The notes beneath the pieces are model-generated. The model made no database searches. It was not told the origin of the DNA and saw only the letters and a program-made list of their open reading frames with translations. From an uncultured bacterium (GTDB lineage: Bacteria; Armatimonadota; Hebobacteria; CAIYQO01), in assembly GCA_903928345.1 (NCBI GenBank), contig CAIYQO010000198.1, positions 4,325 through 68,324 of the forward strand: 64,000 nt of DNA, written 5' to 3'. The position numbers were made by a program, and so were the translations under genes. This document shows positions 2,154 through 58,000 of the stretch, in pieces. The stretch's first letter is position 1. Each line of letters starts with the position of its first letter.

Positions 2154-2534
2154 GTGCGTTTCCGCCCCGCGGGACGCCTTGTGTTGCCCTCCTTGCGGGA
2201 GGTCACGGCGCGGTCCGGCGGGCGCTCGCTTGCGTCGATCCGGTAAATCGGGTACACTTAGCGGGTAGGAACACCGCGTCGTCTTCCTCGTACCTCTTCT
2301 CCTTCCGTTTGGGGTCTGGCTGTGTGTCCGTCGTCAGGGCACCTGCGGTAGCCGTCCAAATCGCGCGGGACGGCAAGATGACACTGCAGGGATCCGCTGC
2401 ACGGACGAACCGTCGTGCCGTCGGCTCCGCGTGATTTCCCGACCCGTCCGGCAGTCCGTTGACCCTGCCCGACGTGCCGACCATCCGGGAAATCGGTGCC
2501 CATACTTCTTCACGCATGGTTGGCTGAGGTAGCG

Positions 2535-4277
2535 ATGACACAATTTACGGAGTATTTCCTGGACGACCGCCTGCAGCGCGCGCTGGTGACGGCGGGCTTC
2601 GAAACGGCCACGCCCATTCAGGACGCGGCGCTGCCGGTGGCGATGAGCGGGCGCGATATGGTGGGCACGGCGCAGACCGGCACCGGCAAAACCGCCGCCT
2701 TCGTGCTGCCCATCCTGCAACGGCTGATCTCCCTGCCGCGGGAAATCCGCCGGACACGCGCGCTGATCCTGGCCCCCACCCGCGAGCTGGTGGAGCAGAT
2801 TCTCGCCGTCGTACGCGAGTTGGGCGTCCACACCAACATCCGCGCCGCCGCCGTCTACGGCGGGGTCGCCATGATGCCGCAGACCCGCGTGTTGCGCAGC
2901 GGCGTGGAGGTCGTGGTGGCCTGCCCCGGACGCTTGCTCGACCACCTCAAACGCCGCAACGCCGATCTGCGCCTGCTGGAATTCCTGGTGCTGGACGAAG
3001 CGGATCGCATGCTCGACATGGGCTTCCTGCCGCCCATTCAGGAGATCCTCGGGCAACTGCCGGCGGAACGGCAAACCCTGCTCTTCTCCGCCACCTTCGA
3101 GAAATCGCTGAACGCCTTCGTCGAAGAGACGCTGCGTGAGCCCGTCCGCGTGGAAGTGGATACCGCGGTGCCCGCGCAAACGGTGAGCCACACGCTGTAC
3201 CAGGTGAAAAGCAGCATGAAGCCCATCCTGCTCCTCAACCTGTTGAAGTCCCTGCAGCCGGAATCGGATTCGGTACTCGTCTTCACGCGCACCCGCATCA
3301 CCGCCAACCTGGTGGTCGACCATTTACACGCGGCCGGCATGTCGGCCGACGTGCTGCATTCGGAAAAATCGCAACGCGAACGCCAGGATACGCTGGATCG
3401 CTTCCGCGACGGCGTGTATCCCTACCTGGTAGCGACGGATATCGCCGCGCGGGGCATCGACGTGCCCAGCATCTCCCACGTCATCAACTACGATCTCCCG
3501 ACGAATGCCAAAGATTATCTGCACCGCATCGGCCGCACCGGGCGCTACGAACGCCCCGGCCACGCCATCTCGCTGATGACCTCCGGCGACGTGCGGGTGA
3601 TCCGCGAAATCGAGCGCATGCTCGAGGAGAAGATCGAAATCGCCCGCGTCGAGGAAAGCGTCCGGCTGGAGATGCACGTCGCCGAGGGGGCGCGCAAGCA
3701 CGCGGCGTCCCTCGGCACCAACGCCGCCGTGCCCGGACATCGCCCGCATGAAGGGCGCCACCGCGACGCGGCGCCCGCGCAGGACCCACGCTTCCCGATG
3801 ACCCGCAAAGCACGCCGCCTGAAGCAATTCGGCCCGGCGTCGGGCGCACCGCCCCCCCCCGAGGGCGCAGAGCGCCGCCGCCACGATGACGCCGCCTCCG
3901 CCCCGCCGCGCCGGGAAGGCCAGGGACGCTCGGAACGTCCGGATCGCTCGGAACGACCGGATCGCCCGGGACGCGCAGAACGTCCGGATCGCCCGGTACG
4001 CTCAGAACGACCAGATCGTCCGCATCGCTCAGAACGACCAGATCGTCCAGAACGCTCAGGACGTTCGGATCGCCCGGATCGCTCAGAACGCCCGGGCGGG
4101 AAACCGTTCGCCGGTATGGCCTCCGTGGCGAAGGCTTATCACAAAAAAGCCCACACCAAGCGCCAACCAGGCGAAATCCCCTCCACCCCGCGCCCGCAAG
4201 GCCGCGCCGAACACGCGCGCCGCGCCGACGCGCCGCCGGCGGGACGCCCCAAGCGCACGACGGGGCGCAAGCGGTAA
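2535..4277 (+). CDS. DEAD-box ATP-dependent RNA helicase with Arg/Glu/Pro-repeat C-terminal tail
   Basis: Track ORF 2496..4277. I moved the start to ATG 2535 (GAGG upstream). Motifs AQTGTGKT, DEAD, SAT and HRIGRTGR are present. Confidence 0.95.
   Translation: MTQFTEYFLDDRLQRALVTAGFETATPIQDAALPVAMSGRDMVGTAQTGTGKTAAFVLPILQRLISLPREIRRTRALILAPTRELVEQILAVVRELGVHTNIRAAAVYGGVAMMPQTRVLRSGVEVVVACPGRLLDHLKRRNADLRLLEFLVLDEADRMLDMGFLPPIQEILGQLPAERQTLLFSATFEKSLNAFVEETLREPVRVEVDTAVPAQTVSHTLYQVKSSMKPILLLNLLKSLQPESDSVLVFTRTRITANLVVDHLHAAGMSADVLHSEKSQRERQDTLDRFRDGVYPYLVATDIAARGIDVPSISHVINYDLPTNAKDYLHRIGRTGRYERPGHAISLMTSGDVRVIREIERMLEEKIEIARVEESVRLEMHVAEGARKHAASLGTNAAVPGHRPHEGRHRDAAPAQDPRFPMTRKARRLKQFGPASGAPPPPEGAERRRHDDAASAPPRREGQGRSERPDRSERPDRPGRAERPDRPVRSERPDRPHRSERPDRPERSGRSDRPDRSERPGGKPFAGMASVAKAYHKKAHTKRQPGEIPSTPRPQGRAEHARRADAPPAGRPKRTTGRKR
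3927..4095 (+). repeat. In-frame ~18-nt periodic coding repeat (RSERPD-like units)
   Basis: CGCTC(G/A)GAACG(T/A)CC(G/A)GAT-type units encode RSERPDRSERPDRPGRAERPDRPVRSERPDRPHRSERPDRPERSGRSDRPDRSERP. Confidence 0.8.
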
Positions 4278-29640: not shown

Positions 29641-29710
29641 GATTCAGGATTCAGGATTCAGGACATTCGCTGAACACGCATCAGCTATCTATTGCCTGAA
29701 TCCTGAATCC
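29641..29710. repeat. Heptamer-array hairpin H2 (unit GATTCAG / CCTGAAT)
   Basis: GATTCAG x3 (29641-29661) pairs with CCTGAATCCTGAATCC (29695-29710). The 32-nt loop contains a GCTGA...TCAGC mini-stem. Confidence 0.85.
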
Positions 29711-34513: not shown

Positions 34514-34660
34514 GGGAAACGAACCGCAAAGACACAGAGAACGCAAGGAACTCGCAAAGATATCTTGTTAGGACCGGGTGCAAGTACGGTGACCGGTTCA
34601 GGGGTGGGAAGATGTCTTTGCGTGCTCCTTTGCGTCCTTTGCGCCTTTCCGGTTCCGTCC
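34514..34660. repeat. E-family long hairpin, copy E1 (CGCAAAG / CTTTGCG short-unit arms)
   Basis: Left arm: GGGAAACGAACCGCAAAGACACAGAGAACGCAAGGAACTCGCAAAGATATC. Right arm: GATGTCTTTGCGTGCTCCTTTGCGTCCTTTGCGCCTTTCCGGTTCCGTCC. The loop is about 45 nt. Confidence 0.8.
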
Positions 34661-44790: not shown

Positions 44791-44932
44791 GAAACCGCAA
44801 AGAACACAAAGGGAACGCAAAGGGAAAAAGGAAGGCCAAGGTGAAAAGCCATGGCCGACCGCTATCTCTTCGGTGCGAAGCGTGAACCTTTCTTCGCGGT
44901 CTCCTTTGCGTCCTTTGCGTCTTTGCGGTTTC
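44791..44932. repeat. E-family long hairpin, copy E2
   Basis: The left arm GAAACCGCAAAGAACACAAAGGGAACGCAAAGGG pairs with the right arm CCTTTGCGTCCTTTGCGTCTTTGCGGTTTC. The terminal 13 bp are perfect. Confidence 0.8.
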
Positions 44933-46922: not shown

Positions 46923-47096
46923 TCACTCGTAAGAAAACCACAAAGGCACGAAGGACACAAAGGACGCGCGAAGAGTGGAGGGTCGGGCCGGAGCGTGTCG
47001 CCGTGACCGAATGCCGTCCTCTCGGCGCGAATTCTAAAAAATATCTTTGCGGTCTCCTTTGCGCCCTTTGCGCCTTTGCGGTTTTCTTACGAGTGA
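46923..47096. repeat. E-family long hairpin, copy E3
   Basis: The perfect 17-bp terminal stem is TCACTCGTAAGAAAACC (46923-46939) with GGTTTTCTTACGAGTGA (47080-47096). The inner arms are ACAAAGGCACGAAGGACACAAAGGA versus TCCTTTGCGCCCTTTGCGCCTTTGC. Confidence 0.85.
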
Positions 47097-49885: not shown

Positions 49886-50050
49886 GGGACGAACCGCAAA
49901 GACGCAAAGAGCGCAAAGGCAACGCAAAGAATTATGGAAAAGGACCGGGAGGGGGATCAGAGCCACTACTTGGGATTTGATCTTCTTCTCCGGCCCTTTC
50001 TTTTCTCTTCGCGACTCCTTTGCGCTCTTTGCGCCTTTGCGGTTCGTCCC
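49886..50050. repeat. E-family long hairpin, copy E4
   Basis: The left arm GGGACGAACCGCAAAGACGCAAAGAGCGCAAAGG pairs with the right arm CCTTTGCGCTCTTTGCGCCTTTGCGGTTCGTCCC. There is one transition in 34 bp. It lies between convergent genes. Confidence 0.85.
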
Positions 50051-50697: not shown

Positions 50698-50802
50698 GGA
50701 ATACCTCCCGGTGAAAGCCGCGCCATGGTAGCAGCTTACTTAACGTTCGTCAAGGTGAGGAAGGGATACGGGCACTTGCGTGCACGCCACCCGCGCCTGC
50801 GG

Positions 50803-50808
50803 TATAAT
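50803..50808 (+). promoter_or_regulatory. -10 box candidate (TATAAT) in the duplicated leader CCTGCGGTATAATG
   Basis: The same 14-mer recurs at 52264-52277. GGAGGGTGAA then ATG follows in both copies. Confidence 0.45.
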
Positions 50809-50827
50809 GGTGACCGGGGAGGGTGAA

Positions 50828-52276
50828 ATGGATTTCGCCGTACGGTTTCACACACAGGGGCATTACCGCGGACCCAATACCGGCCACCTGACCGTGGCGG
50901 ATGATGTCGTTTCGCTGGCATGGCGAGAACCTCTGCTGCCGGTGCATGTATCCATGTGGATCATGCTTCTCGTTGGCCTCGGTCTCCTCTTCATTTTCCC
51001 GATGGCGCTGATGCCATTCCTCCTGTTTTACGATTTCCAATTGCCGTTTAATTTTCAGATTGTGCTCCTATGGGCCTTCGGTTCCGCGGTTCTCTTCATC
51101 TTTGTGAATCTGATACCGCTCCGGCGGAAGCACCGAACCTTCACGCGGGAGGAGATATCTGCGCTTTGCATCCACGGTCGCGACGTAACGTTTACCGTCG
51201 ACAACGAATTATTCCTCCTCTCCTTTACTACCACTGCCGATACCAACACTGCCGTCGCCGCCCTGCGTGAAGGAACAGCGGAACCGCGCACGTGGCGTTA
51301 CAGCGATATGCCTGAGACGTTGTATAACACCACGCGGCTTCCGTATTTCAAGACCGAGGATATTACCGTCGCGGACGGAACCCTGACGGTGGTGGGGGTG
51401 CTGAACCCCAGCATGTGGCGCATTCTTACTGCAGTGGTGTTGGTGTATGCATGCGTCCTATTACCCCTCGCAATGATCGGTGCACATTGGCTGATCTCCC
51501 CGTGGTTGCTGGGTGGTCTCATCTTCATCGGAGAGGGGTTACTCGGCATCCTTACCTACTTCACGGGACGCAGTAAGAGGGAAATGCGGGTGATACCGCT
51601 GGCGGCGCTGCAGGCTATCGATACGATAGAGTGCCATGTCACCTTTTTGGCGCCGGATGGCGATACCGAGCGGCGCTACACGTGGCTGTTGCAGTCGGAG
51701 GAAGAGGCAAAGGCGTTGGCAACCCGGTTGCACGGGGTAGGCGAACCGTGGAAGGGTACACTTCCGCGTGTGCGCGGTTCGGTGACGAATGCCCGCTTGC
51801 ATCGCACCTTACCGGATGCGCTGACGGTTCCCGGTCATGTGACGGTAACGGGAGATCTGGTGACTATTACCGGACACTCGGGTCTGCGCGCCCCGCAGGA
51901 ACGCTGGTGGGCCTTCAGCATCGCGGCGGTGGGGTATGCAGGGCTTGCGGCGTGGTGGTGGCCGCATGTGGCTACACTGGCATTGCCGCTGTGTGACCGT
52001 GTAGCCCTGGGCTTCGTCGCCCCCTTCCTGCAAATGCTGCTCTTCGTCTTCCTTCCGGCGGTGGCGATAATCCATGCGTGCTTTATGCGGGGCATCCGCC
52101 TGCCGCGTCGGATGCTGCATGGCGTACAGAAGGGTGCTCATGTCAATGTGACTGTCCGGGGTGGCTCTACCACCGAAATCATCGCCGCATCCGAAGCCGA
52201 CGCCCGCGCCCTCTGCGCGGCCCTCACTCCGGCAGCGGATCGACCCACATGCACCCCATCCAGCCCTGCGGTATAA
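50828..52276 (+). CDS. Polytopic membrane protein with threefold internal repeat (TM hairpin + ~65-aa soluble module), YdbT/bPH-like suspected; paralogue 1
   Basis: Track ORF 50780..52276. I moved the start to ATG 50828 (GGAGGG upstream). The pattern [G.LTV..D.V.L strand, 2 TM, RRK, small beta/alpha module] occurs three times. The region is lower in GC than its surroundings. Confidence 0.55.
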   Translation: MDFAVRFHTQGHYRGPNTGHLTVADDVVSLAWREPLLPVHVSMWIMLLVGLGLLFIFPMALMPFLLFYDFQLPFNFQIVLLWAFGSAVLFIFVNLIPLRRKHRTFTREEISALCIHGRDVTFTVDNELFLLSFTTTADTNTAVAALREGTAEPRTWRYSDMPETLYNTTRLPYFKTEDITVADGTLTVVGVLNPSMWRILTAVVLVYACVLLPLAMIGAHWLISPWLLGGLIFIGEGLLGILTYFTGRSKREMRVIPLAALQAIDTIECHVTFLAPDGDTERRYTWLLQSEEEAKALATRLHGVGEPWKGTLPRVRGSVTNARLHRTLPDALTVPGHVTVTGDLVTITGHSGLRAPQERWWAFSIAAVGYAGLAAWWWPHVATLALPLCDRVALGFVAPFLQMLLFVFLPAVAIIHACFMRGIRLPRRMLHGVQKGAHVNVTVRGGSTTEIIAASEADARALCAALTPAADRPTCTPSSPAV

Positions 52277-52296: not shown

Positions 52297-53763
52297 ATGG
52301 ATTTTGCCGTACGCTTTCGAGACGCATACCATCACCGCCGCGAGCCGGTCACCGGCAGACTGACGGTGGCACAGGATACTGTCACGTTGGAGTGGCGGGA
52401 GCCGCTGGTGCCGGGATGGATTGTCGCATACATTTCTGCCTGCGGTATGATTCTCATCTTTGATGCCTTCCCGATCGCGCTCATCTTCCAGACATTCTTT
52501 TGGCAGTTTGAGGCATTCGATGCAGCGCGTGGGTTCACTGTCAGCGGGTTATTCTCGCTCCCCATATTATTGCTGATTTGTGTGTTGCCGCTTCGGCGAA
52601 AGACCCGTATTATCCCGCGCGCAGAGATTACTGATCTCATCGTCGAGAAGGGTTACATCACGTGTTCCGCAGAAGGGCGGGAGTATCTCTTTGTTCTCAA
52701 TGCTACGGATGACACGCAAGCCGCGGCCACCGCGTTACGAGAGGGGTGCGCCGTACCGCAGACGTGGAAATATACCGATACCCCGAGGGTTGCGCGTGAC
52801 AGATCCACCATCGAACGTTCGCAAGTCGTGGATGTCACCATCGATGCCGGGGTGTTGACCGTCGCTGGCCTAGTGATCGAAGAACGCTGGCACCAGTGGC
52901 TGTTACTACTGAATGTTTATTCATTTTTAGCGTTGTTTTATCCGTTTCTCCTCCTTTCCAATATCGCAAACCTGTGGATCAATACTGGTATTCCGCTTTG
53001 CGCCATGGCGTTACTAGCGATATCATTCCGCTGGTTGCAACGGGTGAAGTGCGAAACCATCTGCTGGCAACTGGGAGAGATCACCGAGATTGAAGCGAAG
53101 GAAAGGCACGTCGTTTTTCGCGTGCCGGATGGAAAAGGCAAGACGCGCCGGTTCGTCTGGTTGCTGCCCACACAGGAAGAAACGGATGCCGTGGCGGCAC
53201 GTTTGCGCGGCGAGATCCATGAGCGATGGGCGGCGACACTGGCATCTACTCGTTCACGGAGTCAATTCCGACTGCGTCCGCCCCTGACCGATGTGTTGAC
53301 TGTGCCGCGGCGCATCTCCGTAGAGGACGAGCAGGTTACGATCACCGGTCGCACCGGTCTGCGCCATCCCCATGCCGGATGGTGGGCGCTGGGTATCAGC
53401 GCGGCAGGCTTCGTGATCTTGCGAGTTATACTCGAGGCGCGATTCGCCGCACTCGGGCTGGGAGCACCGGAGTTTCCTGCTTTAGCAGTCGTTTCCGCGG
53501 CCATGCTGGCAATTGGCCTCATTTTTCTCCCCACGGCACTGCTCATCAACCTCTGGTATGCTCGCGGTATCCGCCTGCCGCGCAAGGCAATTTCCGTCAC
53601 GGTGCAGGAAGACCGGCGACTGGTGTTCGAGATACATGGGAAGTGGCGGATTGAACTCCTCGCCGCGTCCGAAGCCGACGCCCGCGCCCTCTGCGCGGCC
53701 TTCACTCCGCCTTCTGCTTCACCAGATGCGTCCCCTCACCCCACATTGACTCCCCCCAGATGA
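52297..53763 (+). CDS. Polytopic membrane protein with threefold internal repeat; paralogue 2
   Basis: Track ORF 52078..53763. I moved the start to ATG 52297. The first 7 aa are identical to paralogue 1 (MDFAVRF), as is the C-terminal AASEADARALCAA.TP. The middle is divergent. Confidence 0.55.
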   Translation: MDFAVRFRDAYHHRREPVTGRLTVAQDTVTLEWREPLVPGWIVAYISACGMILIFDAFPIALIFQTFFWQFEAFDAARGFTVSGLFSLPILLLICVLPLRRKTRIIPRAEITDLIVEKGYITCSAEGREYLFVLNATDDTQAAATALREGCAVPQTWKYTDTPRVARDRSTIERSQVVDVTIDAGVLTVAGLVIEERWHQWLLLLNVYSFLALFYPFLLLSNIANLWINTGIPLCAMALLAISFRWLQRVKCETICWQLGEITEIEAKERHVVFRVPDGKGKTRRFVWLLPTQEETDAVAARLRGEIHERWAATLASTRSRSQFRLRPPLTDVLTVPRRISVEDEQVTITGRTGLRHPHAGWWALGISAAGFVILRVILEARFAALGLGAPEFPALAVVSAAMLAIGLIFLPTALLINLWYARGIRLPRKAISVTVQEDRRLVFEIHGKWRIELLAASEADARALCAAFTPPSASPDASPHPTLTPPR

Positions 53764-55219
53764 CCGTGCCGGTCAGGCTGCGCGGGCCGGTGATGCTGTC
53801 TACCCGCACCTCGGCGATGGGGCGGTCGTGGCGGGTGATGGTGATGGTGTCGTGCGGGCGCAGCTTGCGGGTGAAGCAGCGAACGGTCACCGGCGTGTCG
53901 TGGGAGACCGGTTTGCCGGCGAGCACCAATTCGGTCAGCGCGCGCGCCACGCAGCGGATGGCCGTCGCCTCAAGCGTCCCCTCTACGTTGGGGTGCTTGC
54001 CGTCGTCCATGCGCTGCACGGCGGCGGGGATGCCGACGAGCTGCTCCTCCGCCGTCCACGGCCCGCTCTTCCGCGTCTGCGCGATGGCCGTCAGCGTGCC
54101 GTGCAGGCCGCTGGCGGGCTGCGTCCAGGCAATGGATGCCTCGACCGCGGTGCCGGTGGCCGGGTCCAGCGTCTCCGCGCCCCCCGCGGGCACCTCGCGC
54201 ACGGACAGCACGGCGGTGAAGTCGGCGTCGCGCCGCCACGCCGGCGGGGTCACCTCGGGCGCCTCGCCGAAGATGGCGCAGTGCTCCGGCGCCGCGTGCA
54301 CGTAGAGCGCCCCCTCGCCGTGGGCGTAGAGCTGCTCCGCCAGGTAGCTGGGCATCCAGGTGCGCCCGTGCTGGGCGGACGGGTCGAGGTCCAGCTCGAG
54401 CAGCGCCGGCGGCGGCAGCACCGTCACGGGCGCGGTGGTCATTGCCTCCAACGACTTCTGCAGGTTCTTCACGCGCCAGGTGGTGTCGGGATGGCTGGCG
54501 TACAGGCCGGTGAGCCACGTGCGCGCCGTGCCGTTGCCGTAGGCGTTGTAGATGCGGGTCATGGCGGTGACGGACTGCGCGGGGTCGAAACCGGCGCGCG
54601 CGGCAAAGCGCACCCCCTGCTCGTCGGCCCGGCGCTCGTCTGAGCGGCTGTCCAGGCCGAAGGTCAACCCGCCGCCGATATCCGCCCCCACGCGCGCCGC
54701 CGCCCCGCCGCCGCCCAGCAGGACGGTGGCCGCCGCGCCCACCACCGCGCCGCCCAGCGCGCGCACGACCTGCCGAGCGGAGTGGTGCTCCTTGATGTGG
54801 GTCATCTCATGCCCAAGGATAAAGGCCAACTCGTCGTCGGAAGCCAGGTGCGCCATCCCCGCGCCCACATATATGTGCCCGTCGGGAAAGGCCATGGCGT
54901 TGATCTCGCCGTTGTTGTAGATGTGCAGCTCGATATGCCGCAACCCCGCCGCCCGTGCCAGCCGCTGCCCGATCATCTGCACCCGCACGTTGGCGGAGAG
55001 ATCCGGGTCGGCCCCAAAGCGCTTGACGAGGTAGCCGCCGTCGTCAGCACGGGCGGCGAGGGTGGCAACGAGAAGCAGCAGCAGGAGCGTGACGCGGGTG
55101 AATGCCCGTGGGGGTATTGCGGATTGCGGATTGCGGATTGCGGATTCTGCAGACGCGAACCGACTGCCTGATGCACGGGGCGGGTGAGCAGCGGAAGGGT
55201 TTGGGGATAGATATTCCAT
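53702..55219 (-). CDS. M48-family zinc metallopeptidase with a ~250-aa C-terminal domain of unknown function
   Basis: Track ORF 53702..55228. I prefer start ATG 55219 (AGGAGG 9 nt upstream). Zinc motif AFILGHEMTHIKEHH. Signal/anchor TLLLLLLVATLAARA. Codons ~24-35 are encoded by the heptamer array. Confidence 0.8.
   Translation of the reverse strand: MEYLSPNPSAAHPPRASGSRFASAESAIRNPQSAIPPRAFTRVTLLLLLLVATLAARADDGGYLVKRFGADPDLSANVRVQMIGQRLARAAGLRHIELHIYNNGEINAMAFPDGHIYVGAGMAHLASDDELAFILGHEMTHIKEHHSARQVVRALGGAVVGAAATVLLGGGGAAARVGADIGGGLTFGLDSRSDERRADEQGVRFAARAGFDPAQSVTAMTRIYNAYGNGTARTWLTGLYASHPDTTWRVKNLQKSLEAMTTAPVTVLPPPALLELDLDPSAQHGRTWMPSYLAEQLYAHGEGALYVHAAPEHCAIFGEAPEVTPPAWRRDADFTAVLSVREVPAGGAETLDPATGTAVEASIAWTQPASGLHGTLTAIAQTRKSGPWTAEEQLVGIPAAVQRMDDGKHPNVEGTLEATAIRCVARALTELVLAGKPVSHDTPVTVRCFTRKLRPHDTITITRHDRPIAEVRVDSITGPRSLTGTVIWGESMWGEGTHLVKQKAE
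55116..55146. repeat. Heptamer array (ATTGCGG) x4, left arm of the four-helix-bundle cassette
   Basis: ATTGCGGATTGCGGATTGCGGATTGCGGATT. It lies inside the 5' coding region of the M48 gene, where it is translated as ESAIRNPQSAI. Confidence 0.9.
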
Positions 55220-55232
55220 CTTACACATCCTC

Positions 55233-55637
55233 CTATTTATTTACCGACTGTGCCTGGCTGGCACGCGCACCGGGTGCGATATTCGTGCGAGACAATCGTG
55301 CGGTATTAATGGAAGCAACCGTAATCGCAAGCAGCTCATCGGCTTCTTTGGCCAACGGGGCATAACGTTCCGGGGTGATACGCCGGTAATCCCGCAGCAA
55401 TTCCATCCAGTACAGACATTCGTCGGCTTCCTCTTCAAGGATACCCATTTTGGCCAGGAAGTCCGGCTTCGATCGCGCACGGCAAGCAGCACGATAATTG
55501 GCGCCGACCGAAGTCGCCGAGCGTAGGAGCTGCTTGCCCAATACCTCGGTCGTCATCGAGCGCGGCAAGATTTCTACCAGGGCGATGACATCGAGGGCGA
55601 AAGCCCGCATACGCGCCTTCAATTGCGTCGCATCCAC
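55233..55637 (-). CDS. Four-helix-bundle protein (23S rRNA intervening-sequence protein family)
   Basis: Track ORF 55233..55700 starts at a TTG inside the repeat array. The likely start is GTG 55637 (or ATG 55610). QLKARMRAFALDVIALVEILP...QLLRSATSVGANYRAACRARSKPDFLAKMGILEEEADECLYWMELL is the family signature. Its stop TAG overlaps the AGGAGG of the M48 gene. Confidence 0.85.
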   Translation of the reverse strand: MDATQLKARMRAFALDVIALVEILPRSMTTEVLGKQLLRSATSVGANYRAACRARSKPDFLAKMGILEEEADECLYWMELLRDYRRITPERYAPLAKEADELLAITVASINTARLSRTNIAPGARASQAQSVNK

Positions 55638-55677
55638 GAGCAGCCATCCTTTCCACACCGTTTCCGACGATAGACCT

Positions 55678-55702
55678 AATCCGCAATCCGCAATCCGCAA
55701 TT
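55678..55702. repeat. Heptamer array (AATCCGC) x3, right arm of the cassette, complementary to 55116-55146
   Basis: AATCCGCAATCCGCAATCCGCAATT. It starts immediately at the TAA stop (55701-55703) of the truncated E2 gene. Confidence 0.9.
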
Positions 55703-56186
55703 ACGGTATGTCGTCCACCGAGATCATGCCGCCGGGACCGGTGCCTTTGAGGGTCGCCAGGTCCACGCCGCGTTCGCGGGCCAGGCGGCGGGCGGCGGGG
55801 GTGGCGCGCACGGCGGGGGGGGTGGCAGGCGCGGTGGGGGCGGCACCGGCGCTGGTGGCGAGCTGCATAGCGGAGAGGGCGGTCTCCCGCACTTCGGACA
55901 GGCGGCGGTTTTCCGCGTCCAGCGCGGCGCGGTTGTCCACGTCGGCGCCGGCGTCGCCCAGCACGGCCAGCACGGTGCCCACCGGCACCACGCTTTTTTC
56001 CGCCACCAGTTGTGCCAGCAGCGTGCCCGCCGCGGGGCTCTGGTATTCGTAGGCCACCTTGTCGGTGATCAGCTCCGCCACCGGCTGGCCTTCTACCACG
56101 GCATCGCCGGGTGCCACCAGCCACTGCCCCAGCGTGGCTTCTTCCATCTCCGGGTATAAGGCGTCCAAAGTTACGGTATACTGCAT
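55701..56186 (-). CDS. Lipoyl domain + peripheral-subunit (E3/E1)-binding domain protein: an E2 acyltransferase lacking the catalytic domain
   Basis: Track ORF 55701..56201. I moved the start to ATG 56186. ELITDKVAYEYQSPAAG is a lipoyl-Lys motif. ATPAARRLARERGVDLATLKGTGPGGMISVDDIP is a PSBD. The stop follows directly, and there is no DHRxxDG domain. Confidence 0.8.
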   Translation of the reverse strand: MQYTVTLDALYPEMEEATLGQWLVAPGDAVVEGQPVAELITDKVAYEYQSPAAGTLLAQLVAEKSVVPVGTVLAVLGDAGADVDNRAALDAENRRLSEVRETALSAMQLATSAGAAPTAPATPPAVRATPAARRLARERGVDLATLKGTGPGGMISVDDIP

Positions 56187-56427
56187 GCGGTTCCCTTTCA
56201 CGCGAGCTGAGGCTACAATTCCCCGTCACGCAAAGGGTTCCCTGCCGACGGGGCAGCCAACCTGAATGCCAGCGCTTGCATGGTAATCCTCGTCTTCCGC
56301 CGACGGAGGCTGGACAGGCGCGAAGGAACCGTTTACACTGAGCCGGTATAAATCGTCATTCGTCGTCGTCACTCGAATTACGATAACGAATGCCGACAAC
56401 GAGCGACGATTATCCTGGAGGAGCACG

Positions 56428-57915
56428 ATGACGGATAGCGCACCCACCCCCGGCACCGTATATCTGGTCGGCGCCGGGCCCGGCGATCCCGGGCTGCTCA
56501 CGCGCGCGGGCGCGGACGCCCTGGCACGCGCCGAGGTGGTGATCTACGACCGGCTGGCCAGCCCGGCGCTGCTGGCGCTTGCCGCCCCCGACGCGGAGAT
56601 GATTTACGTCGGCAAGGCGTCGTCGCGGCACACGCGTACCCAGGAGGAGATCAACGAGCTGCTCGCCGAGCACGCCTGGCGCGGCAAACGCGTCTGCCGG
56701 CTCAAGGGCGGCGACCCGCTGGTCTTCGGGCGCGGCGGCGAAGAGGCCGCCCACCTGCGCGCGCGCGGCGTGCCCTTCGTCTTCGTGCCCGGCGTCACCT
56801 CCTCCATCGCCGTGCCCGCGTATGCCGGCATCCCGGTGACCGACCGGAGCTGCGCCTCCTCCTTCGCGGTCATCACCGGCCATGAGGACCCGACCAAGCC
56901 GGAATCCGCCCTCGACTGGGCGGGCATCGCCCACGGCGCCGACACGCTGGTCTTCCTGATGGGCCTGGCCAACCTGCCGGAAATCGCCGCGCAGTTGGTG
57001 GCCCACGGGCGCCCGGCCACCACCCCCGCGGCGGCTATCCAGAGCGGCACCACGTCACGGCAGCGCGTGGTGACGGGTACGCTGGCGGACATCGCCGGGG
57101 CAGTCGCCACCGCCAGGTTGGAGTCGCCCGTCATCACCGTGGTCGGCGAAGTGGTCGGCCTGCGCGACACGCTGGCGTGGTTCGATACGCGCCCCCTCTT
57201 CGGGAAACGCGTACTGGTCACCCGCACCCGCGAGCAGGCGAGCGACCTGTCGCGTTTGCTGGCGGAGGCCGGCGCGGAGCCGGTAGAGTTCCCGGTGATC
57301 CGCATCGAGCCGCTGCCCGCCGTGCCGAATCTCCTCGACCGCCTGGCAAAGGCCGACTGGCTGGTCTTCACCTCCGCCAACGGGCTGCCGCATCTGCTGG
57401 CGCAGGTGCGCGCACTCGGCGGGGACATCCGCGCGTTGGGGCGGGGCAAGGTGGCCGCCATCGGCAGCGGCACCGCCGAGAGCCTGCGCGCGTGCGGGCT
57501 GCACGTCGATTTCATCCCCGACCGTTTCGTGGCCGAGGCCTTCGCCGCGCAGTTCCCCGACCCCGCCGGCCTGCATATCGTCATCCCGCGCGCGCAGGAA
57601 GCGCGCGAGGTGCTGCCCGCGCTGCTGACGGCACGCGGCGCCACGGTGGACGACCTCCCCATCTACCGCACCGTGCCCGAGGACGGCACGCCGCCGCCGC
57701 TGGCCGACATCGACGTGATCACCTTCGCCAGTTCCTCCACCGTGCGCAGCTTCCGCAAGCTCAACCCCGGCACGGTGTCATCGACGGTCGCCTGCATCGG
57801 CCCCGTCACCGCCGACACCGCCCGCGAGCTGGGCCTGCGCGTGGACGTGCAGCCGGACGACTACACCCTCCCCGCGCTGGTGCAGGCGCTGGTGGGGTAT
57901 TTTGCGAAGTCGTAA
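56428..57915 (+). CDS. cobA/hemD: Uroporphyrinogen-III C-methyltransferase fused to uroporphyrinogen-III synthase
   Basis: GGAGGAG RBS. The N-terminal half has VYLVGAGPGDPGLLT and GGDPLVFGRGGEE. The C-terminal ~240 aa are HemD-like. Confidence 0.9.
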   Translation: MTDSAPTPGTVYLVGAGPGDPGLLTRAGADALARAEVVIYDRLASPALLALAAPDAEMIYVGKASSRHTRTQEEINELLAEHAWRGKRVCRLKGGDPLVFGRGGEEAAHLRARGVPFVFVPGVTSSIAVPAYAGIPVTDRSCASSFAVITGHEDPTKPESALDWAGIAHGADTLVFLMGLANLPEIAAQLVAHGRPATTPAAAIQSGTTSRQRVVTGTLADIAGAVATARLESPVITVVGEVVGLRDTLAWFDTRPLFGKRVLVTRTREQASDLSRLLAEAGAEPVEFPVIRIEPLPAVPNLLDRLAKADWLVFTSANGLPHLLAQVRALGGDIRALGRGKVAAIGSGTAESLRACGLHVDFIPDRFVAEAFAAQFPDPAGLHIVIPRAQEAREVLPALLTARGATVDDLPIYRTVPEDGTPPPLADIDVITFASSSTVRSFRKLNPGTVSSTVACIGPVTADTARELGLRVDVQPDDYTLPALVQALVGYFAKS

Positions 57916-57917
57916 TG

Positions 57918-58000
57918 ACCACAGAGACACTGAGACACAGAGGAGAATGGGCTTGCTGCCGCGGCAGAGAATAATCTCTGTGTCGCTGTGCCTCAGAGGT
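57918..58000. repeat. Short-unit (ACACAGAG-type) imperfect hairpin with a central GC palindrome
   Basis: ACCACAGAGACACTGAGACACAGAGGAGAAT pairs with ATAATCTCTGTGTCGCTGTGCCTCAGAGGT (about 22 of 30 positions paired, by eye). The loop holds the perfect palindrome CTGCCGCGGCAG. Confidence 0.7.

Follow-up and report, generated by a model that had tools for sequence, protein, structure and literature searches.

Intervening sequences (IVSs) that contain an open reading frame (ORF) are known from the 23S rRNA of Leptospira, Coxiella burnetii, Haemophilus and Brucella (PMC4990558). They carry a sense-oriented S23p gene of the Pfam family PF05635 and are closed by a terminal stem of about 24-28 bp. In Coxiella, the stem measures 28 bp and is cut by RNase III, and 3-4 tandem GACAGAT heptamers, whose number varies between strains, lie ahead of the S23p ORF (Warrier et al., PMC4990558). 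The origin and purpose of the rRNA IVSs and of the S23p ORFs are still described as unclear (PMC4990558). The element described here has the same architecture in a different setting. It lies at positions 55116-55701 of a 64,000-nt stretch of contig CAIYQO010000198.1 from an uncultured bacterium of the Armatimonadota (hereafter the window) and consists of a four-helix-bundle gene of family PF05635 enclosed by two complementary arrays of heptamers, between a gene for a lipoyl and E3-binding-domain protein and a gene for an M48 peptidase. The region is probably a promoter-less cassette, an element of the same type as the ORF-containing 23S rRNA IVS, inserted in a two-gene operon.

Heptamer arrays have also been described by Rehm et al. 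(2015), who found the units GGGAATC and GGGGA(C/T)T in Xanthomonas and Nostoc, with a preference for about four units and for positions between aligned ORFs (PMC4692102). The G-rich strand lies up to 50 bp past a stop codon or the C-rich strand up to 50 bp before a start codon, and each Xanthomonas genome has 70-75 convergent (inverted) pairs of arrays (PMC4692102). Rehm et al. proposed that the arrays form G-quadruplexes and drew no connection with S23p/PF05635, and the role of over-represented heptamer repeats in bacterial intergenic spacers is still described as unclear (PMC4692102). Genes annotated as 23S_rRNA_IVP occur between cmr3 and cmr2 as well as in other cas operons, which has been interpreted as a functional association (PMC3936711). 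A search of full-text literature, a coverage that excludes most subscription journals, found no paper tying non-rRNA PF05635 genes to flanking heptamer arrays, and for the present such heptamer-armed cassettes appear to be undescribed.

The arms of the window cassette match each other perfectly. Tandem Repeats Finder reports an ATTGCGG array at 55116-55146 (period 7, 4.4 copies, 100% matches) and an AATCCGC array at 55678-55701 (period 7, 3.4 copies, 100% matches), and the two together form a 24-nt inverted repeat of 100% complementarity with 531-538 nt between the arms. The genes concerned lie on the minus strand. On this sense strand the 5' arm (55678-55701), found by tandem-repeat and inverted-repeat search, reads (TTGCGGA)x3.4, and its first base is the last A of the upstream stop codon TAA (55701-55703). 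The 3' arm (55116-55146) reads (AATCCGC)x4.4 and is translated as ESAIRNPQSAI, codons 25-35 of the M48 gene. With up to two mismatches allowed, the 14-mer ATTGCGGATTGCGG has five matches in the 64 kb, all inside the two arrays, against 0.75 expected. In the folded minus-strand RNA of 55100-55720 the arrays are paired in both the minimum free energy and the centroid structures; the fold of the whole 621-nt RNA has a z-score of -2.9, and the isolated 24-bp arm duplex a free energy (dG) of about -44 kcal/mol. The same arms are present on four further readable metagenome contigs, the shortest of which ends within the 3' arm, and the cassette is therefore no assembly artefact. The original prediction for this DNA had placed complementary heptamer arrays around a bundle ORF, the right one starting at the upstream TAA and the left one in the early codons of the M48 gene, with the TAG of the bundle gene overlapping an AGGAGG. 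It had also proposed that the minus-strand transcript folds into a stem. The coordinates, the perfect inverted repeat, the minus-strand PF05635/TIGR02436 gene and the computed fold agree with it on all these points.

The cassette thus has a stem of at least 20 bp, tandem heptamers and a sense-oriented S23p ORF, as a 23S rRNA IVS does, and differs from it in location, its flanks being protein-coding genes where those of an IVS are helix 25 or 45 of the 23S rRNA gene. An Rfam search of 54800-56500 gave no match. A scan for sigma-70 promoters and terminators, based on a consensus that may not suit this phylum, found nothing on the minus strand within the cassette. The cassette would seem to have no promoter of its own and to be transcribed with the operon, and the bundle gene has the same orientation as both its neighbours.

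The bundle gene (55233-55637, minus strand) extends from a GTG start (55635-55637) to a TAG stop (55233-55235) and encodes 134 aa, in agreement with the 134-aa product that gene callers give on other contigs. The 5' spacer (55638-55677, minus strand) holds its ribosome-binding site (RBS), AAGGA at 55647-55651, 9 nt ahead of the GTG. The protein matches PF05635 (23S_rRNA_IVP) at 8e-18 and 65 bits (cut-off 33.8) and TIGR02436 (four helix bundle protein) at 3e-23 and 82.2 bits (cut-off 24). Its AlphaFold2 monomer model (predicted local distance difference test score, pLDDT, 89.5) shows helices at residues 3-22, 28-52, 57-83 and 89-115 and a disordered tail. A Foldseek search with this model gave template modelling (TM) scores of 0.91 to BT_0352 (2RLD), 0.86 to Xcc0516 (2GSC) and 0.83-0.85 to Avd of diversity-generating retroelements (DGRs). 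Sequence and profile searches of the PDB reached 2RLD only (phmmer E = 8e-17; BT_0352 is 35% identical to the window protein), Xcc0516 being reached by the fold search alone. The 2RLD entry contains five chains, and the structure of Xcc0516 is a pentameric ring (PMC4990558). The conserved motif of the family, GxxRxxxSxxxNxxE (PMC3936711), is represented by RxxxSxxxN (R39-S43-N47); its last E is replaced by A, and this A50 is invariant in an alignment of 51 sequences of the subfamily. The nearest homologue elsewhere is just 68-70% identical. Most plausibly, the protein binds nucleic acid, perhaps its own heptamer arrays, as a putative role.

The insertion itself can be recognised by comparison of orthologous loci. 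Relatives of the M48 peptidase were drawn from a collection of 5.8 billion proteins, where few exist; a single-protein scan of GTDB genomes (species representatives) returned none. At three of the loci (L006, the contig of P0125, and L007) the site is empty: the lipoyl/E3-binding gene ends 11-26 nt from an M48 gene whose product is 41-47% identical to that of the window. A fourth locus, L005 (M48 70% identical), has a bundle cassette at the same junction, bracketed by TGA-GTGCGGAGTGCAGAATGCGGAATTCGGATT and AATCCGCATTCCGCACACCGCACTCCGCAAT. Its heptamers have diverged from one another, and its arms still pair at 25 of 29 positions (dG -42). In both the window and L005, the cassette has a GC content of about 56% within flanks of 70-72%; the window bundle gene itself has a GC of 0.57 and a GC at third codon positions (GC3) of 0.62, against a GC3 of 0.84-0.89 in the neighbouring genes. 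The cassette, foreign in composition, was inserted between the two genes of a conserved operon, in a spacer of roughly 20 nt. The bundle protein is under purifying selection, as a codon comparison with L005 shows (66% identity; ratio of non-synonymous to synonymous differences per site, pN/pS, 0.24).

This association of gene and arms is general. Close homologues of the window protein, 51 of which were aligned, were used for a survey in which 80 loci were fetched from GTDB species representatives and 75 were usable. At each locus, a score was given to the best local inverted repeat with one arm in the 250 nt upstream of the gene and the other in the 250 nt downstream, and shifted positions in the same loci served as controls. 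The homologues are 50-68% identical and spread across many phyla, including Verrucomicrobiota, Acidobacteriota, Planctomycetota, Chloroflexota, Nitrospirota, Cyanobacteria, Bacteroidota and delta-proteobacteria. The inverted repeat exceeds the 95th percentile of the controls at 64% of the 75 loci and the 99th at 55%, with a mean score of 18.2 compared to 9.3. Period-7 arrays are present upstream at 63 loci, downstream at 50 and on both sides at 41, and in 35 of 515 control windows. The consensus unit is A-[T/A/G]-T-G-C-G-G, ATTGCGG being the second commonest, and its purine-rich version is always found 5' of the bundle gene. Moreover, variant units follow one another in mirrored order in the two arms, and of the 27 informative loci 26 outperform permutations of unit order (Wilcoxon p = 6e-6). 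Many arms are perfect over 24-57 bp, non-repeat bases included (for example L012 and L047).

A second, distant subfamily, of Bacteroidota type, behaves in the same way. The sequence of BT_0352 was used to fetch 80 metagenome loci, of which 65 are non-redundant, and 95% of these exceed the 95th percentile of their controls. The units are AATTGAC, AATTGAT or AATGGAC, and arrays stand on both sides at 49 of the 58 loci with enough flanking sequence. Arms contain about four to five units, with medians of 3.9 and 4.6. Contigs 100% identical to 2RLD place the BT_0352 cassette between a class II aldolase (AraD-like) gene and araA, in the order TAA, 2 nt, (AATTGAC)x4, ORF, (GTCAATT)x4, 11 nt, ATG. Arms also accompany the homologues found on plasmids of cyanobacteria and Chloroflexota and those of viral contigs, where the RefSeq label is merely 'four helix bundle protein'.

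The surveys also provide a direct link to rRNA. One locus, L127, is an authentic fragment of 23S rRNA (Rfam LSU_rRNA_bacteria, 671 bits) with a sense PF05635 ORF in the region of helix 45. Its arms, (ACAATTG)n and (CAATTGT)n, have a unit identical to that of the non-rRNA copies of its subfamily. It is the only rRNA location among 160 related loci from two scans of the collections. Its rRNA flanks match no other locus, the window included, and rRNA is therefore a rare location. The cassette and the ORF-containing rRNA IVSs thus have in common stems made of tandem heptamers in varying number (GACAGAT in Coxiella, ACAATTG in L127), and both are regarded as selfish insertions. Gene and mirrored arms form a unit, built like the ORF-containing rRNA IVSs. 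In contrast to these, the window cassette lies between protein genes of an operon, has a good RBS and has a 3' arm translated as part of the next gene. The earlier proposal of an IVS-like insertional cassette in an mRNA context, for which a search for empty sites in relatives had been suggested, is borne out by the three empty sites, the foreign composition, the same kind of arrays in many phyla and the IVS at L127.

Cassettes have a preferred position with respect to neighbouring genes. Across the surveyed loci, the 5' arm typically begins 0-6 nt past the stop codon of a co-directional upstream gene, a geometry shared by the window, and the 3' arm ends from a few to about 40 nt ahead of the start of the next gene. 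Where the downstream gene uses a Shine-Dalgarno sequence, it is kept past the 3' arm. From the proximity of the 5' arm to the upstream stop and of the 3' arm to the next start, it follows that cassettes occupy short intercistronic spacers of operons, in agreement with the 23S_rRNA_IVP genes reported from cas operons (PMC3936711). Orientation is co-directional with the upstream gene in 54 of 66 cases, with the downstream gene in 51 and with both in 42, a figure only modestly above that for any bacterial gene and derived from ORF calling that is crude in GC-rich loci.

Individual loci show a number of variations on this arrangement. L043 (3402-4511) has three additional tandem partial copies of the bundle gene with the same array after each, and the arms of L021 (2729-3532) consist of super-repeats of heptamers of about 45 bp. 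In L047, L038 and L023 a second arm of the 5' type stands just past the gene, so that the 3' arm can pair either nearby, in a short hairpin, or around the gene. L069, from the Phycisphaerae, has two cassettes 1.4 kb apart (1055-1525 and 2933-3455), whose proteins are divergent and whose heptamer units differ; the bundle ORF of the second one itself runs into the 3' arm (...IRNPN*), as the M48 gene does in the window. Plasmid pGLO7428.03 of Gloeocapsa sp. PCC 7428 (L173) and a plasmid of Candidatus Chlorohelix allophototropha (L174) each have, between a DUF1156 gene and a Swt1-family HEPN gene, a cassette with ATTTTAG-type arms, the junction being the same in both. Either the cassette travelled inside the module as a whole, or insertion at this junction took place twice. 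A defence-system context suspected at the viral locus L168 was dropped, a Pfam search of its flanks having found no matches.

The two genes that flank the window cassette form a pair of their own. The upstream gene (55701-56186, minus strand; about 161 aa from an ATG at 56184-56186) encodes a lipoyl domain and an E3-binding domain and nothing else, with no catalytic domain. It had been taken for a truncated E2 gene, but a label of E2 cut by the insertion is untenable: alignment shows that the protein has its full length of 160-165 aa at empty sites too, where it is likewise the conserved partner of M48. In the window and in L005, which have the cassette, it ends in ...DDIP*; the C-terminus at empty sites is ...DDIPGA* or ...DDIPHE*. 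In every locus found (53702-56186 of the window, L005, L006 and L007) this gene is the immediate upstream partner of the M48 subfamily. Farther out, the genes scanned match HemD/CobA and HemB, apart from two paralogues that have no Pfam match. The window HemB has its highest similarity (75-77%) to proteins of metagenome-assembled genomes of Armatimonadota.

The M48 gene (53702-55219, minus strand) encodes 505 aa as called, and residues 1-47 are a lineage-specific extension derived from the cassette. Orthologues begin, in alignment, at the signal peptide. From the 3' arm to the hydrophobic core of the signal peptide, the M48 frame of the window has no RBS and no in-frame ATG, GTG or TTG. The 3' spacer inside the cassette (55147-55232, minus strand) holds the working start: an AGGAGG (55229-55234), which overlaps the TAG of the bundle gene, lies 9 nt upstream of the ATG at 55217-55219, where gene callers also place the start. 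The M48 gene of L005 still has an RBS and a GTG of its own past the 3' arm (MSVYRQTILIVLL...). As read from the sequence, the window M48 has evidently lost its own RBS and start and now initiates at AGGAGG-N9-ATG inside the cassette, gaining 47 residues and reading through the 3' arm. Since this ATG is inside the cassette, M48 translation would have to compete with the forming or cutting of the stem. The control of the peptidase suggested in the original prediction could apply at this one point.

A mechanism modelled on the rRNA IVSs can be proposed for such an element. The operon promoter would drive transcription of the cassette, and the arms would pair in the operon transcript, a perfect 24-bp duplex looping out the cassette. 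By analogy with the rRNA IVSs of Coxiella, Leptospira and Salmonella, this duplex may be a substrate of RNase III, whose cut would set free a bundle mRNA closed by the stem and part the cistrons on either side. Cutting would be harmless at an intercistronic junction, as it is at the tip of an rRNA helix, and the fact that it would merely separate cistrons would explain why the element persists at both kinds of site. RNase III excision has been demonstrated for rRNA IVSs, and it is by this analogy that the window stem is presumed to be cleaved.

Several observations weigh against this picture. The proportion of synonymous differences (pS) in the bundle gene between the window and L005 is 0.81, that is, saturated, whereas in the flanking genes it is 0.30 and 0.45. 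This would mean either that the cassette changes far more rapidly than the DNA around it, or that it was replaced there after the divergence of the two lineages, and saturation suits replacement better than quiet vertical descent. The analysis revealed no transposase, no integrase and no target duplication, although the empty sites are too diverged for a duplication to be judged. Among the mismatches of the arms, G:U is no more frequent than A:C (44 versus 58), and from the sequences the complementarity of the arms cannot be assigned to the sense RNA rather than to DNA. Efficient cutting of the stem would cost the M48 message its start, yet M48 is intact and conserved; stem cleavage is therefore likely to be partial or absent here. 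Finally, the term promoter-less derives from the scan for a sigma-70 consensus, which may be inapplicable to this phylum.

Part of this evidence would be expected if the arms act at the level of DNA, as terminal inverted repeats or 24-30-bp blocks of homology by which cassettes are moved or swapped. Candidate routes are a recombinase or homologous recombination with ORF-less heptamer hairpins already in place as landing pads, and RNA pairing would then be a by-product. This idea, which is compatible with an IVS-type cassette rather than exclusive of it, is a serious candidate, if somewhat improbable. The lack of G:U bias speaks for it, as does the perfection of 24-57-bp arms down to their non-repeat bases, which suggests recent copying or conversion rather than slow selection and argues against a view based on RNA only. 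Saturated synonymous sites at an identical insertion site, in the window and L005, are what arm-mediated exchange would produce. Close to the cassettes of L010, L019, L052, L038, L047 and L073 there are hairpins built of the same units, with loops of 11-100 nt and no ORF, which could be landing pads or relics, and the closest homologues of the bundle protein are scattered among unrelated phyla, plasmids and viral contigs. However, no recombinase gene accompanies the cassette. The arms always have the one orientation with respect to the gene and the neighbours are mostly co-directional, a polarity which points to transcription mattering, and the rRNA copies of these arms are known to function as an RNA stem (PMC4990558). 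A somewhat more doubtful proposal is that the arrays are putative binding sites, in RNA or DNA, of a pentameric bundle protein, in a relationship like that of RAYT proteins and REP sequences (see below). Binding would serve autoregulation, protection or processing of the stem, or the spreading of heptamer hairpins through the genome. Proteins that share a unit class are more similar to each other (permutation p = 0.001). Units of the ...CGG kind persist in the window type even where the host has a GC content of 36-44%, the 2RLD type has AATTGAC, and one Phycisphaerae locus of 70% GC has both protein types, each with its own type of unit. The four to five units per arm can be set beside the pentamers of the solved homologues (2RLD; Xcc0516, PMC4990558), and the structural relative Avd is part of an RNA-protein complex (8UB7). 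On the other hand, host phylogeny and the joint inheritance of gene and arms are confounding factors in the covariation of unit and protein, the Coxiella authors judge that S23p is probably not made from the IVS (PMC4990558), and ATTGCGG units are confined to the cassette within the 64-kb window.

It is unlikely that the stem has been co-opted to regulate M48, with cleavage or sequestration in codons 25-35 tuning peptidase synthesis, for instance through translation of the upstream ORFs or through RNase III activity. Only the window lineage has the M48 start and RBS in the cassette and a translated 3' arm, and ribosomes starting from the ATG at 55219 would have to melt the 24-bp stem or prevent its formation. 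In L005 and most other loci, though, the downstream gene starts past the arm, which argues for an accident of a lost start rather than a designed switch; indeed, the loss of the M48 start looks like an evolutionary accident, not a general design. The remaining reading, that ordinary intergenic simple repeats happen to flank an unrelated small gene, can practically be dismissed. It might draw on the richness of the window in other short-unit arrays and array hairpins, but the unit occurs at these two places only in the window, the arms mirror each other unit by unit, and the association of PF05635 genes with arms recurs at over 100 independent loci, compared with 7-22% of control windows. These control comparisons refute it.

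Comparison with other known systems helps to delimit the element. Like the Xanthomonas and Nostoc arrays of Rehm et al., the arms have a seven-nt unit in about four copies, with the purine-rich strand after a stop codon and its complement before the next aligned ORF, and the units are related (GGAATCG there, GGAATGC or GGATTGC in cassettes). The window pair differs in that it encloses a gene and that ATTGCGG, having GG runs only, cannot form a G-quadruplex. Avd of DGRs (4DWL, 8UB7) shares the four-helix-bundle fold and the Pfam family and is pentameric and associated with nucleic acid. Sequence identity is 12-13%, however, and heptamer arms are not a described feature of DGRs. Membership in a DGR was rejected because there is no reverse transcriptase nearby; this was looked for among the flanking genes of the cassette, and template and variable repeats were not searched for. 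An analogy exists with repetitive extragenic palindromic (REP) sequences, the REP doublets that form hairpins (REPINs) and the REP-associated tyrosine transposases (RAYTs): here too a gene is flanked by an inverted short repeat that is also found in gene-less intergenic hairpins. RAYTs, though, are homologues of HUH transposases and have a catalytic fold that is known, while no catalytic site is known in the bundle protein, and REPs are single palindromic units whereas the cassette arms are tandem heptamer arrays. Integron cassettes are likewise small, promoter-less, co-directional ORFs that rely on outside transcription. However, they have one attC at one end and need IntI and an attI platform, while the bundle cassette has two symmetric arms, no integrase and dispersed sites.

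Taken broadly, the PF05635 genes and inverted heptamer arrays may represent one ubiquitous and unrecognised class of selfish promoter-less cassettes, a generalisation that falls a little short of being probable. Such cassettes would settle where cutting of the transcript is harmless, mostly at operon junctions between a stop codon and the next cistron (arabinose, cas, M48) and rarely at rRNA helix tips, the site that led to their discovery and name. The pentamer would recognise its cognate units, cassettes would be exchanged via their 24-30-bp arms, and the intercistronic arrays of Xanthomonas, Nostoc and others would be gene-less relatives or landing pads. The locus, its empty sites and more than 100 parallel loci suggest that rRNA IVSs, S23p ORFs and intergenic heptamer repeats are three views of one element, and show that it resides mainly in mRNAs. 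The general rule that PF05635 genes travel with inverted heptamer arrays, mostly between cistrons, is judged to be the more valuable result. The question can be tested in culturable bacteria, crystal structures being available for BT_0352 of Bacteroides thetaiotaomicron and Xcc0516 of Xanthomonas; the arms of the BT_0352 cassette have now been delimited, and its host operon has been studied thoroughly. Moreover, 'four helix bundle protein' genes in cas and other operons may be hitch-hiking cassettes and not functional partners of their neighbours, and start-codon calls beside such cassettes need care, as the M48 gene shows.

The window contains further repeats. An ORF-less heptamer hairpin at 29641-29710 (plus strand), made of (GATTCAG)x3.3, a 31-nt loop and (CTGAATC)x2.3, lies 6 nt past the stop of an amino-acid-kinase (aspartokinase-like) gene and upstream of dapA. 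Its geometry is like that of the cassette arms and the Xanthomonas and Nostoc heptamer arrays; its unit differs from that of the cassette. Three hairpins at 44802-44927, 46939-47080 and 49895-50041, together with a solo array at 34626-34648, form a family of imperfect tandem 8-9-mers. Their arms (AACCGCAAAG... and ...CTTTGCGGTT) enclose unrelated loops of 70-90 nt without coding content, and they are intergenic, occur in all three orientations of neighbouring genes and have the look of MITEs, miniature transposable elements with inverted repeats. Another hairpin, at 57920-57990, has (CACAGAGA)x2.9 facing TCTCTGTG, about 5 nt past the stop of a cobA-hemD fusion and upstream of hemB. The suggestion that the shorter hairpins of the window are empty derivatives of the cassette was not upheld: the CGCAAAGG and CACAGAGA hairpins have different units and no sequence in common with its arms. 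They may be analogous elements.

Other features of the window concern neither cassettes nor hairpins. An intergenic 40-bp tandem repeat at 1952-2106 (3.9 copies, 96% identical) has a palindrome in each unit (TTATTCGCGCAGCGAATA), and a 27-bp (9-codon) tandem repeat at 3931-4095 (6 copies, 79% identity) lies inside the ORF at 2496-4277. Two adjacent paralogous ORFs, at 50780-52276 and about 52300-53763, are convergent with the M48 gene and have a GC content below that of their surroundings; they have no Pfam match, and their products share ...EGEMDFAVRF..., multiple hydrophobic segments and ...LLAASEADARALCAA....

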